DNA from: Coprobacillus sp. CAG:698
Lineage (GTDB): Bacteria > Bacillota_I > Bacilli_A > ML615J-28 > CAG-698
Assembly: GCA_000431235.1 (NCBI GenBank)
Contig: HF988734.1
Location: 72,647 to 136,646 of the forward strand
Direction of reading: 5' to 3'
DNA length: 64,000 nt
A program made the translations under genes and the position numbers. This document shows positions 1 to 6,040 of this stretch, piece after piece. The notes beneath the pieces were generated by a model that was not told the DNA's origin, made no database searches, and saw only the letters and a program-made list of their open reading frames with translations. Each line of letters opens with the position of its first letter. Within the stretch, counting starts at the first letter, position 1.

Positions 1-1323
1 AAACCAGAAGAAAAGATATATCAAAATTATATTTTGAAGAAATGTTTAACACTTCAAGAAATAAAAGATGAAGTGTTTAGCAAAGTAATAGATAATGAAT
101 TAGAATACTTAATGTTTGTTGAGATGAACTTATCCCAAGTTTTATCAAAGATGGAATATGATGGACTAAAAGTGGATTTAAACAAATTAGAAAAGATAGG
201 CAAAGATTTTACTGAAAAAGCTTTACAAAAAGAAGAAAGAATCTATGAACTTGCTCATGAAAAATTTAATCTTAATTCCCCAAAACAACTGGGAGAAGTA
301 TTATTTGATAAATTACAAATACCTTATGTGAAGGGAAAGAAAAAAGGGCATAACGGATATAGCACTAGTGCCGATATATTAGAAAAACTAAGTAAAGATT
401 ATGAAATTGTTCAAGAAATATTAGATTATAGAGCCTTAGCAAAACTTAATAACACTTATGTTAATGGCTTAAAAGATGTATGTGTAAACACTTATATCCA
501 TCCATTATATAAACAAGCCCTTACCAATACAGGAAGGCTTTCAAGTATAGAACCAAATATTCAAAATATGCCTATAAGAACAGAATTAGGACAAGTTATT
601 CGTGAAGTGTTTGTTTCAAGATTTACTGAAGGAATAATTTTAAGTGCAGACTATTCACAAATAGAATTAAGAATTCTTGCACATATGTCTAGAGATAAAA
701 AAATGATAAGTGCATTTAATAGTCATACAGATTTTCATACGCAAACAGCTAGTCAAATTTATGATATTGATGTGAAAGATGTAACAAAAGAAATGCGCCG
801 AACAGCAAAAGCTATAAACTTTGGTATAATATATGGTATGAGTCCTTGGGGATTAAGCGAGAGCTTAGGAATAACTCCTATGGAAGCTAATATATTTATA
901 AATAAGTATTTTTATAATTATCCATATGCGAAAAACTGCTTAGATGATTTCATTAAATATGCCAAAGAAAATGGATATTCAAAAACTTTATATGGACGAA
1001 GAAGATATATTCAAGAATTAAGCAGTTCAAATAACAACTTAAGACAGTTCGGAGAAAGAACAGCAATGAATTCACCTATTCAAGGAACGGCAGCTGACAT
1101 TATAAAGATCGCTATGAATAAAGTTAGTGAAGCTATAAAGCGTAAAAACTTGAAATCAATAATGATAGCTCAGGTACATGATGAATTAGTTTTTGATTGC
1201 CCAAAAGAAGAAATCGAAATAATGAAACAATTAGTCAAAGAAGAAATGGAAAATGCTGTGAAACTAGAAGTCCCACTTGAAGTGGGAATAGCATCTGGAA
1301 AGAACTGGTTTGAAGCAAAATAA
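1..1323 (+). CDS. polA: DNA polymerase I, C-terminal polymerase (family A) domain; 5' end lies outside the window
   Basis: ORF open from base 1 in this frame. Motifs of the Pol I palm and fingers are present (LSADYSQIELRILAHMS, RRTAKAINFGIIYG, QVHDELVF). Ends with TAA at 1323. Confidence 0.9.
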   Translation, partial: KPEEKIYQNYILKKCLTLQEIKDEVFSKVIDNELEYLMFVEMNLSQVLSKMEYDGLKVDLNKLEKIGKDFTEKALQKEERIYELAHEKFNLNSPKQLGEVLFDKLQIPYVKGKKKGHNGYSTSADILEKLSKDYEIVQEILDYRALAKLNNTYVNGLKDVCVNTYIHPLYKQALTNTGRLSSIEPNIQNMPIRTELGQVIREVFVSRFTEGIILSADYSQIELRILAHMSRDKKMISAFNSHTDFHTQTASQIYDIDVKDVTKEMRRTAKAINFGIIYGMSPWGLSESLGITPMEANIFINKYFYNYPYAKNCLDDFIKYAKENGYSKTLYGRRRYIQELSSSNNNLRQFGERTAMNSPIQGTAADIIKIAMNKVSEAIKRKNLKSIMIAQVHDELVFDCPKEEIEIMKQLVKEEMENAVKLEVPLEVGIASGKNWFEAK

Positions 1324-1335
1324 AGGAGAATAATT

Positions 1336-2718
1336 ATGCCTGAATTACCAGAAGTCGAAACCGTAAAAAATAGTTTAAAAGATTTAATTATAGGCGAAGA
1401 AATAAAAGACGTTAAAGTATATTATGATAAAATACTTAAGAACATTTCTAAAGATGATTTTGAAAACTCTCTCAAAGGTGAGCACTTTCTTGACATTCAG
1501 AGAAAAGGTAAATTTTTAATATTTATACTAGATCATTATATTATGGTTTCCCACTTGCGAATGGAAGGTAAATACCTTCTTCATAAAGATGAACCAATAA
1601 ATAAACATGAACATATCATATATGCTTTCAAAGATGGAAAAACCTTAAGATATGTAGACACAAGAAAATTCGGAGTTGTTTATTTGTTTAAAGAAACAAA
1701 CGTTGAAAAGGTCAAAGAAATGTACCCATTAAATACCCTAGGAATCGAACCTATTAGTAATTTGCTAACAGCTCAATACTTACAAAGCAAGATGGGGAAA
1801 AGTAACAAACCAATAAAAACCTTACTTCTTGATCAAACAATAATATCAGGTCTAGGTAACATTTACGCTGATGAAGTATGTTTTATGTGTAAATTAAACC
1901 CTCATGAAATTGGTAAAAACTTAAGTACGATTGATTTTGAAAATATTTGTGTAAATTCAAAAATAGTTTTAGAGAAAGCAATTAAACTTGGGGGAACAAC
2001 AATAAGAAGCTTTATGTCAAGCCATGAAATTACAGGTAAGTTTCAAAATGAACTCTTGGTGCATACTAAAACTAATTGCCCAATTTGCCAAAGCAAGATA
2101 AAAAAAGTATATATTGGTGGCCGTGGAACATACTATTGCCCAAACTGTCAAAAAGTTAAAAGGATGCTTATTGGCATAACAGGAGGCATAGCTTGTGGGA
2201 AAAGTGAGGTCATGAAGTATTTAAATGATAATAAATATAAAACATTTAATTGTGATGAATATTCTCATAGTTTACTTTTAGAAAGTAAAGTAAAGAATGA
2301 AATAGTAAAGACTTTTGGAGAAGAAGTTTTAGAAGGAAATGTTATAAATCGTCACAAATTAGCAGACCTAATATTTAATAATAATGCTAATAAACAAAAA
2401 CTAGAAGCAATAATACATCCTTTAGTAATTAATAAAATAAAAGAACTTAATGGACTAGTATTTGTGGAAGTACCTTTACTTTTTGAAGCCAACATGGTAA
2501 AGATATTTCAAAAAATAATATGTATTTCTTCTAGTAGAAATGTTGAAATAGATAGACTTATGAAAAGAAATAACCTTTCTCTTACAGAAGCTGAAAAAAG
2601 AATAAATGCGCAAATGGACCTTTTAGAAAAGGAAAAGAGATCGGATTATGTAATAAATAATAATACAGATATAGTGAGTTTATATAAACAAATTGAAGAT
2701 TTCCTAAAAACAATTTAA
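1336..2718 (+). CDS. mutM-coaE: Formamidopyrimidine-DNA glycosylase (Fpg/MutM) fused in-frame to dephospho-CoA kinase (CoaE)
   Basis: N-terminus is MPELPEVETV (catalytic Pro2/Glu3). It has a C4 zinc finger CPICQ...YYCPNCQK typical of the Fpg C-terminus. The frame then continues without a stop into MLIGITGGIACGKSEV, a CoaE P-loop. An internal ATG at 2173 is preceded by AAAGGA. Confidence 0.8.
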   Translation: MPELPEVETVKNSLKDLIIGEEIKDVKVYYDKILKNISKDDFENSLKGEHFLDIQRKGKFLIFILDHYIMVSHLRMEGKYLLHKDEPINKHEHIIYAFKDGKTLRYVDTRKFGVVYLFKETNVEKVKEMYPLNTLGIEPISNLLTAQYLQSKMGKSNKPIKTLLLDQTIISGLGNIYADEVCFMCKLNPHEIGKNLSTIDFENICVNSKIVLEKAIKLGGTTIRSFMSSHEITGKFQNELLVHTKTNCPICQSKIKKVYIGGRGTYYCPNCQKVKRMLIGITGGIACGKSEVMKYLNDNKYKTFNCDEYSHSLLLESKVKNEIVKTFGEEVLEGNVINRHKLADLIFNNNANKQKLEAIIHPLVINKIKELNGLVFVEVPLLFEANMVKIFQKIICISSSRNVEIDRLMKRNNLSLTEAEKRINAQMDLLEKEKRSDYVINNNTDIVSLYKQIEDFLKTI

Positions 2719-2725
2719 AATAAAA

Positions 2726-2755
2726 ATTGTAAATATACTATTATTGTAGTATAAT
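2726..2755 (+). promoter_or_regulatory. Sigma-A-like promoter (TTGTAA-N17-TATAAT) for the 121-aa gene
   Basis: ttgtaa atatactattattgtag tataat, followed by a strong RBS AAAGGAGG. Confidence 0.4.
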
Positions 2756-2790: not shown

Positions 2791-3156
2791 ATGAAGTTTT
2801 CAGATTATTTTTCAAACAACTTTGAAACTAAAGAAGATCATATGTATGAAACATTGAGAACACATTATTATCGTGCTCGTCTTGAAGAAGCTAAAAAAGA
2901 AGTGTTAGATCTAATTGAACGAGAAAAAGGTAAAATAATTGATGATAATGAAAAATATTCAGAAATTTATTATGAAACTCCAAGTTATAATTGTACAGTA
3001 ACACTTATTGCTACAACGCCAGTTGAAATTGCTATTGATTTTCGCGTTACAACGTATAATTTTATTTCATTTGGGAAAGGGAAAAAAGTGATTGAAAACC
3101 TTTATAAAGATTTAGACAGTAAATTATCTTATAAAGGGATATCACTTTACAAATAG
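2791..3156 (+). CDS. Hypothetical protein (121 aa)
   Basis: Strong RBS AAAGGAGG 7 nt upstream and its own promoter. No family recognised. It sits where nrdR or other genes lie in B. subtilis but is not NrdR-like. Confidence 0.5.
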   Translation: MKFSDYFSNNFETKEDHMYETLRTHYYRARLEEAKKEVLDLIEREKGKIIDDNEKYSEIYYETPSYNCTVTLIATTPVEIAIDFRVTTYNFISFGKGKKVIENLYKDLDSKLSYKGISLYK

Positions 3157-5548: not shown

Positions 5549-6040
5549 ATGGAGATAATAAAAATAATTGGTGAGAACTATTTAGGTTCTTGGCATAAAC
5601 AGAGAACAAGCTGTCGAACCTTAGTTATTAAGGATGGGAAAGTATTACTAACATTTGAAAAGAATATTTGTCAGTATATGATTCCCGGAGGAGGAAAAGA
5701 ATCTGATGAAAGCGATACTGAGTGCGCCGAAAGAGAAGTTTCTGAAGAAACAGGATACATTGTAAAAACATCAGAATGTGTGCTTGAGATTGATGAATAT
5801 TATGAGGATAGTAAATATTTTAATAAATATTATCTAGGCACAGTAGTTGGGCAAACGTCTACACATCTAACTCAAAGAGAAAAAGAAAATGGAGCTGAAC
5901 CTGTCTGGGTAGATATTGATACAGCAATAAACATTTTTTCGGAGTACGAAAAATATGAAGATTCTAATGAAATGAAGCGTGGCTTATATTTAAGAGAATA
6001 TACAGCCCTTTGTAAAATATTAAAAAATAATAAAATATAA
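5549..6040 (+). CDS. NUDIX hydrolase
   Basis: Nudix box GG(x5)E(x7)REVSEETG is present. RBS AAAGGAAGG. Confidence 0.75.
   Translation: MEIIKIIGENYLGSWHKQRTSCRTLVIKDGKVLLTFEKNICQYMIPGGGKESDESDTECAEREVSEETGYIVKTSECVLEIDEYYEDSKYFNKYYLGTVVGQTSTHLTQREKENGAEPVWVDIDTAINIFSEYEKYEDSNEMKRGLYLREYTALCKILKNNKI

Follow-up and report, generated by a model that had tools for sequence, protein, structure and literature searches.

An uninterrupted Fpg/MutM-dephospho-CoA kinase (CoaE) reading frame in a gut Coprobacillus: a catalogued domain architecture of probable operon origin

The pairing of a DNA-repair glycosylase with the dephospho-CoA kinase CoaE has been touched upon in two published studies. In four phytoplasma genomes, CoaE was reported to be 'annotated as formamidopyrimidine-DNA glycosylase', and in the supplement of that study mutM and coaE share locus numbers in the four genomes (Kube et al. 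2012, PMC3322544). A conserved frame-transition GeneTack cluster named 'DNA glycosylase / Dephospho-CoA kinase' was listed by Antonov et al. (2013, PMC3711429), with experimental data indicating that programmed frameshifting and translational coupling may both occur in the cluster. Our literature searches returned only these two indirect mentions, and no paper dedicated to a MutM-CoaE fusion or to its biochemistry was found.

Here we describe a locus in a 64-kb stretch of DNA (the window, G+C content 28%) where the two enzymes are encoded by one reading frame that contains neither a stop codon nor a change of frame. The fusion represents an already catalogued and widespread domain architecture and is neither a novelty nor an error. 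With considerable confidence, we propose that it is a bifunctional protein that arose by the collapse of a coupled operon pair, in which the two activities would be independent of each other and the main effect of the joining would be their obligatory co-expression.

The fused reading frame and its operon

The fused open reading frame (ORF) occupies positions 1336..2718 of the window on the + strand, where it starts with an ATG and encodes 460 residues followed by a stop codon. The initial annotation had described one 460-residue Fpg-CoaE ORF without an intervening stop and this description is borne out by both the ORF list and the sequence. The zinc-finger and P-loop peptides that it quoted are likewise present in the sequence, and the size of roughly 52 kDa that it gave agrees with a calculated mass of 52.9 kDa. 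Residues 1-272 (1336..2151, + strand) form the Fpg/MutM half and residues 277-460 (2164..2715, + strand) the CoaE half, the two being separated by the four junction codons AAA GTT AAA AGG (2152..2163, + strand), which specify Lys273-Val-Lys-Arg276 (KVKR). The junction reads TGC CCA AAC TGT CAA AAA GTT AAA AGG ATG CTT ATT GGC ATA ACA GGA GGC and is translated as CPNCQ-KVKR-MLIGITGG, with no in-frame stop of any type.

Four Pfam domains were found along the chain, namely Fapy_DNA_glyco (residues 1-114), H2TH (135-225), zf-FPG_IleRS (248-274) and CoaE (277-446). All three Fpg domains (PF01149, PF06831 and PF06827) score above their gathering thresholds, and the NCBIfam model for fpg, TIGR00577, is matched over its full length (residues 1-272 against profile positions 1-276 of 276) with 304.6 bits where the cut-off is 203.3. 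The Fpg half begins with MPELPEVE, which holds the Met-Pro-Glu start by which members of the family are recognised together with the catalytic Pro2 and Glu3. Also present are the void-filling residues Met76, Arg110 and Phe112 and the C4 zinc finger (Cys248, Cys251, Cys268 and Cys271; 2077..2148, + strand). The CoaE half gives full-length matches to both PF01121 (E = 7.9e-42, profile positions 1-178 of 180) and the NCBIfam dephospho-CoA kinase model TIGR00152 (residues 278-454 against profile positions 1-187 of 188; 156.9 bits, cut-off 65.55). Its P-loop, GGIACGKS (residues 283-290; 2182..2205, + strand), follows the GxxxxGK[ST] pattern, and the aspartate after strand 2 (Asp307), the lid arginines Arg407 and Arg411 and the further motif residues His361-Pro362 and Pro380-Leu381..Glu384 were all identified. 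As both NCBIfam equivalog models are matched end to end, the chain consists of two complete enzymes joined by about four residues. The predicted activities are those of an 8-oxoG/Fapy glycosylase-AP lyase (beta,delta-lyase) for the Fpg half and of a dephospho-CoA kinase for the CoaE half. No second coaE or fpg was found within the 64-kb window.

The AlphaFold2 model of the fusion has a mean pLDDT of 89.1 and a pTM of 0.72, and the junction region is modelled with a pLDDT of about 88-91. The sole poorly modelled segment comprises residues 224-230, which we interpret as the Fpg loop that caps the lesion. The modelled Fpg half superimposes on MutM-DNA complexes with a TM score of 0.93 and an rmsd of 1.8 Å, while the CoaE half aligns from residue 4 of the Aquifex CoaE structure (2IF2), its P-loop, Asp307, Arg407 and Arg411 being among the aligned residues. 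Among the structural matches there was no solved chain spanning both halves.

The gene upstream of the fusion, in the same operon, is polA (DNA polymerase I), of which only the 3' part (1..1323, + strand; Pfam DNA_pol_A, E = 6.9e-149) lies in the window, cut by the window start and closed by a TAA stop at 1321-1323. On three identical contigs (L001, L003 and L004), the polA product is 867 residues long and its gene ends 12 nt before the fused ORF. A putative Shine-Dalgarno sequence read from the DNA, AAGGAG (1323..1328, + strand), starts on the final base of the polA stop and precedes the start codon of the fusion by 7 nt. Just 3' of the fused ORF there is a promoter-like site, TTGTAA-17 nt-TATAAT (2727..2755, + strand; 10 of 12 matches), in a region where the total of such matches is no higher than in shuffled sequences. 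This site may be the start of a downstream unit composed of a 121-residue ORF, dnaB and dnaI; if it is real, the fused gene would be the last gene of the polA operon. The neighbouring genes are the same on all identical contigs (ornithine decarboxylase, VanY, polA, fusion, 121-residue ORF, dnaB, dnaI, a NUDIX gene and thrS), and the order VanY-polA-fusion-122 aa-dnaB-dnaI-thrS is retained on the 758-kb contig of a relative that is 47% identical.

Conservation of the fused architecture and its unfused relatives

The fusion is conserved in most of the relatives compared. Out of the 120 best clusters at 90% identity, 114 have lengths of 454-493 residues and both Pfam domain sets, at identities to the window protein that range from 98% down to 42%. 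When 1.84 billion representatives at 50% identity were searched exhaustively with HMMER, about 110 of the 150 best proved to be fusions, with identities to the window protein of 34-50%; 13 of the fusions have unusual P-loops and were counted by eye. The junction is mostly 5-12 residues long among the fused representatives at 50% identity, and the distance between the last zinc-finger CxxCQ and the P-loop GxTG is 6-9 residues in 43 of 44 aligned fusions. This near-constant short junction implies that no linker has been added, the fusion being simply the tail of Fpg followed by the head of CoaE.

Among the 44 aligned fusions, the invariant positions of the Fpg half comprise the whole stretch from Met1 to Val7, with Pro2 and Glu3, as well as Lys59, Met76, Arg110, Phe112, Asn175, Arg263 and the four zinc-finger cysteines, whereas those of the CoaE half are Gly283, Gly288, Lys289, Asp307, His361, Pro362, Pro380, Leu381, Glu384, Arg407 and Arg411. 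The roles of these residues are established in the structural literature on Fpg and CoaE. Pairwise identity averages 55% in the Fpg half and 41% in the CoaE half, with a correlation between the two of r = 0.75 (44 fusions). Nei-Gojobori dN/dS values of 0.06 (Fpg) and 0.17 (CoaE) were obtained against a relative that is 80% identical, and of 0.05 and 0.37 respectively against a 70% relative, where dS is saturated and the ratios are rough. Both halves are under purifying selection. The CoaE half was also observed to evolve faster than the Fpg half.

By these sequence comparisons, the fusion is genuine and long-established and not a one-off loss of a stop codon. A genuine bifunctional fusion was one of the options considered in the initial annotation, and it is the option that fits an architecture kept down to 34% identity with its catalytic residues invariant. 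Another option, loss of the Fpg stop codon, holds as an evolutionary route but fails as a recent lesion in this genome, since the fused architecture persists at such low identity.

Unfused relatives were also found, and two of them share synteny with the window. In L087, whose Fpg half is 69% identical, the junction reads CQK-TAG-gaggaaagt-ATG-FIGITG, so that two genes lie in the same frame with one stop between them. In L085 (64%), CQK is followed by TAA, then by 14 nt containing AAGGAG and then by the ATG of a second gene. The KVKR codons of the fusion occupy the place of the stop plus the Shine-Dalgarno spacer of these two relatives. The expectation of a stop at this position in relatives is therefore correct for L085 and L087 and incorrect for most relatives; its presence in only some of them points to a fused state that is polymorphic across the clade and not to an error here.

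The junction states across Bacilli were surveyed on contigs that match the Fpg peptides MPELPEVE and HLRMEGK, mostly with distant Fpg sequences, among the matches listed, and the survey confirms that mutM and coaE lie next to each other in Bacilli, as the initial annotation had stated. The two genes overlap by TGATG in Streptococcus and by ATGA in Solobacterium. The distance from the mutM stop to the CoaE P-loop is 10-33 nt in Acholeplasma, Izemoplasmatales, Enterococcus, Lentilactobacillus, Staphylococcus and Exiguobacterium, with values of 10-14 nt in Acholeplasma, Enterococcus and Lentilactobacillus. In Bacillus and Paenibacillus, mutM and coaE are about 700-980 nt apart, the gap being occupied by a gene that we take to be ytaF. 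In a neighbour-joining tree of the Fpg domains, built with no support values, a large Erysipelotrichales/Acholeplasmatales-like clade is fused throughout, with unfused members scattered among the fused ones. This arrangement points to several fusion or fission events, and is compatible with one ancient fusion followed by reversions as well as with several independent fusions.

Three candidate features of the junctions were discarded. An out-of-frame TAA in GT-TAA-AA was considered as a relic of the ancestral stop and rejected, as the 80% and 70% relatives have no TAA. Reading of TGA as Trp (table 4) is irrelevant to a junction that holds no stop of any kind. A 481-residue table-4 ORF in Solobacterium (L027) was rejected as a fusion, the genes there overlapping by ATGA in different frames.

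Origin of the fusion and competing explanations

The abutting or overlapping genes of the relatives point to a fusion that resulted from the collapse of a translationally coupled pair within the polA-mutM-coaE operon. The proposed starting point would be the coupled mutM-coaE pair of this conserved Bacilli operon where, because the stop of mutM abuts or overlaps the start of coaE, a single substitution or an indel of 1-2 nt is enough to remove the stop and bring the two frames into line. The genes would then have been joined head to tail with essentially no linker, Fpg being N-terminal and CoaE C-terminal. This order is the one to be expected. The nucleophile of Fpg is the free N-terminal proline that is exposed by removal of the methionine, from which it would follow that Fpg can be extended only at its C-terminus and must be the N-terminal partner, whereas CoaE tolerates N-terminal partners, as in the eukaryotic CoA synthase. 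The two halves would most likely work independently, and the consequence of the fusion would be that both are necessarily expressed 1:1, from a single ribosome-binding site within the polA operon. Across most of the family CoaE has no start codon of its own and would be made only as part of the fusion.

Several other readings were weighed against the collapse of a coupled pair. The initial annotation had allowed for an assembly or base-call error, in which a 1-nt indel in the A-run of the junction or a miscalled stop would give two genes the appearance of one. The junction is A-rich (CAAAAAGTTAAAAGG) and, with L085 and L087 having two genes, one wrong base could in principle produce an apparent fusion. 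However, the identical 460-residue product was recovered by exact-sequence look-up from no fewer than 23 contigs of independent samples and assemblers (independent ENA, NCBI and Logan assemblies, with NCBI MAGs among the sources); the identical protein is recorded as CCY08113.1 and as OLA10862.1 from Coprobacillus sp. 28_7, a human-gut member of the Erysipelotrichales, family Coprobacillaceae. In the corresponding 90% cluster of 66 members, the junction CQKVK[R/K]MLIGITGG is common to all the 460-residue members listed, and the fused state, with a junction of equal length, recurs in more than 100 divergent clusters. Given the identical product on so many contigs and the junction kept in the listed cluster members, an assembly error is effectively refuted and we assign it practically no weight. 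Somewhat more credible, and still very improbable, is a fusion in name only, where the stop was lost but most CoaE would still be translated separately, starting at the internal ATG, the 53-kDa species being a minor by-product. The codon in question, Met277 (codon 277; 2164..2166, + strand), is located exactly at the coaE start position of the unfused relatives, follows a purine-rich AAAAGG and is probably the former coaE start codon; in overlapping mutM/coaE pairs, moreover, a frameshift product and downstream initiation may both occur (Antonov et al., PMC3711429). Independent translation of CoaE from this ATG with a weak AAAGGA Shine-Dalgarno sequence had been suggested in the initial annotation, which placed the ATG at 2173, 9 nt from its actual position, and the suggestion finds no support in the sequence, as the final A of AAAGGA is the A of the ATG itself and AAAAGG directly abuts it with a spacing of 0 nt. 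Such a spacing is too short for a Shine-Dalgarno site. A strain variant carries AAG in place of AGG (KVKK), the 80% relative reads AAA GTC AAA CAC ATG without an SD-like sequence, and the 70% relative reads AAA CCT AAA CAC TTA TTA ATA with no ATG, GTG or TTG. Methionine was found in the junction of four of the 44 aligned fusions (12 of 97 in a wider set) and is missing from the other 40, and the lack of an upstream stop would leave no terminating ribosome to re-initiate. Both Met277 and the AGG codon are species-level features that are not conserved among fused relatives, and with neither a conserved Shine-Dalgarno sequence nor a conserved Met, and no start codon at all in the 70% relative, CoaE would be made as part of the fusion across the family, although in this species some low-level internal initiation at Met277 might still take place.

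A real functional coupling as the reason for the fusion, in place of a mere collapse of neighbours, is also unlikely in our judgement. Under such a coupling, the supply of CoA, as a low-molecular-weight thiol antioxidant, might be tied to the repair of oxidative DNA damage, or else the tethered kinase domain or its ligands (ATP, dephospho-CoA and CoA) might modulate Fpg or target the 3'-phosphate ends left by its action. The adjacency and translational coupling of mutM and coaE are conserved across Bacilli, a frameshift-derived fused product may also arise from overlapping pairs (Antonov et al., PMC3711429), and CoA has been reviewed as a low-molecular-weight thiol and antioxidant (PMC10950700, PMC8228455). 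In a B. subtilis mutant of the GO system, the CoaE protein rose by a factor of 9.5 (PMC10968225), a rise that could nevertheless be a polar effect of the mutM disruption. In E. coli K-12, coaD and mutM are convergent with 38 nt between them, coaBC is found four genes further on and coaE is three genes from mutT; these neighbourhoods were noticed post hoc, however, and are not co-transcribed, since the genes either converge or are encoded on opposite strands. A fixed geometry could be indicated by the junction, which is very short, nearly constant in length and confidently modelled by AlphaFold2, yet a pTM of 0.72 neither proves nor excludes a fixed interdomain interface, and the conserved positions all belong to the standard catalytic motifs of each family. 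Against a coupling, the fused and unfused states alternate among close relatives of identical synteny, as would be expected if covalent linkage mattered little, and so free an alternation suggests that the covalent link itself is not critical. A broader version, to which we give slightly less credence again, regards the fusion as one end of a general and functionally coupled association between GO repair/sanitation genes and the last steps of CoA synthesis. This association may take the form of fusion (here and in phytoplasmas), of translational coupling or possible frameshifting (Lactobacillales) and of the E. coli neighbourhoods of coaD/mutM, coaBC and mutT..coaE. If it were true, CoA output or the nucleotide-binding state of CoaE would be linked to the repair of oxidative DNA damage, for instance with Fpg under allosteric control or with CoA co-regulated as an antioxidant thiol. 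It would be of interest if GO repair and CoA metabolism were truly linked, the present support for this being circumstantial and drawn from gene neighbourhoods.

Against the preferred reading, the recurrence of GO-system and CoA genes in the same E. coli neighbourhoods hints that their co-localisation may not be purely accidental.

For one and the same gene pair, the locus offers a clean natural series of states, from genes that overlap or abut, through genes with only one in-frame stop between them, to the fused gene, and is on that account of use in studies of the way in which fusions arise from translationally coupled neighbours. It also calls for caution in the 'Rosetta-stone' inference of function from fusions. 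The names given to the window protein and its relatives at NCBI are only 'DNA-formamidopyrimidine glycosylase' or 'hypothetical protein'. With CoaE hidden under an Fpg name, metabolic reconstructions that rely on names could list the final step of CoA synthesis as absent. This caveat touches Erysipelotrichales, phytoplasmas and related gut MAGs, and for phytoplasmas the correction has already been made by Kube et al.

Comparison with known systems

The solved structures of the separate enzymes are the structural counterparts of the two halves. Residues 1-273 of the window protein align end to end with MutM of Geobacillus stearothermophilus and Lactococcus lactis (1L1T, 1R2Y and 1PM5; E = 2e-59), and the catalytic and zinc-finger residues of these enzymes are conserved in the fusion. 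The solved MutM chains end just past the zinc finger, whereas the chain described here runs into CoaE after four residues. Residues 277-460 in turn span the whole kinase, from the first strand and P-loop onward, when compared with the stand-alone CoaE of Aquifex (2IF2), Haemophilus (1JJV) and E. coli (1VHL). The eukaryotic bifunctional CoA synthase (DPCK domain, 2F6R) resembles the present fusion in that its kinase is likewise the C-terminal part of a fused chain. Its N-terminal partner is PPAT, the preceding enzyme of the pathway, whereas the N-terminal partner here is a DNA-repair enzyme.

At the level of the genes, a close counterpart is found in 'Candidatus Phytoplasma', where MutM and CoaE were assigned to one locus that is named as a glycosylase only, as is the case here (Kube et al. 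2012). The phytoplasma fusions described in that paper belong to the Acholeplasmatales lineage, whereas the window fusion belongs to the Erysipelotrichales. The separate but coupled mutM/coaE pairs of other Bacilli (Streptococcus, Enterococcus, Acholeplasma and others), to which the cluster of Antonov et al. corresponds, have the same gene order and the same enzymes as the fusion, with a stop and a start that overlap or are about 10-30 nt apart. The fusion in the window, in contrast, has neither a stop nor a frame change and is a constitutive, directly encoded product.

The fpg-coaE junction in a relative and an apparent second Fpg fusion

The relative's locus L087, in which fpg and coaE are two genes, has an Fpg half that is 69% identical to the one encoded in the window. 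The two genes lie in the same reading frame there, and only a TAG stop codon and nine further nucleotides (gaggaaagt; L087 1566-1590) separate them. This arrangement is either one substitution short of a fusion or the product of a recent fission.

A search of representatives at 50% identity contained P0227, a protein of 579 aa whose Fpg part is 52% identical over residues 1-275. It continues into another C-terminal region, of about 300 aa and without a CoaE P-loop. P0227 appears to be a different Fpg fusion.

In the NCBI records OLA10862.1, MCI6014592.1 and MDY4145711.1, the fused protein (1336-2718 in the window) is named only as 'DNA-formamidopyrimidine glycosylase' or 'hypothetical protein'. 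Because these names omit CoaE, the CoaE function is hidden from name-based pathway reconstruction.

Genes flanking the fusion

The window begins within polA (1-1323, + strand), which encodes a PolA of 867 aa on contigs identical to the window; the TTG at 34 in the ORF list was rejected as its start, being an artefact of the window edge.

Directly 3' of the fused ORF, and 5' of the genes for a 121-aa protein, dnaB and dnaI, lies a near-consensus promoter-like site on the + strand (TTGTAA-17-TATAAT, 2727-2755); no intrinsic terminator was found between the fused ORF and these genes. The 121-aa ORF (2791-3156, + strand), located between the fusion and dnaB, has no family match in either Pfam or NCBIfam. 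Four relatives (L085, L087, L088 and L091) retain an ORF of 121-123 aa at the same position, and in some of them it overlaps the start of dnaB. The gene directly preceding dnaB in B. subtilis is nrdR.

Oxidised-base and CoA-synthesis genes

A NUDIX hydrolase gene (5549-6040, + strand) lies four genes 3' of the Fpg fusion, and its product has the YtkD family as its top NCBIfam match, far under the cut-off (27.3 bits, E = 2.2e-06). YtkD is the MutT-like protein of B. subtilis in the GO-system literature.

As a post hoc observation on two stretches of E. coli K-12 (NC_000913.3), CoA-synthesis genes adjoin genes for oxidised-base avoidance: mutT, yacG, zapD and coaE form a run of consecutive genes in the first (110500-114500), while coaD and mutM are convergent with a gap of 38 nt in the second (3808000-3813000), and dfp (coaBC) lies four genes away from this pair.
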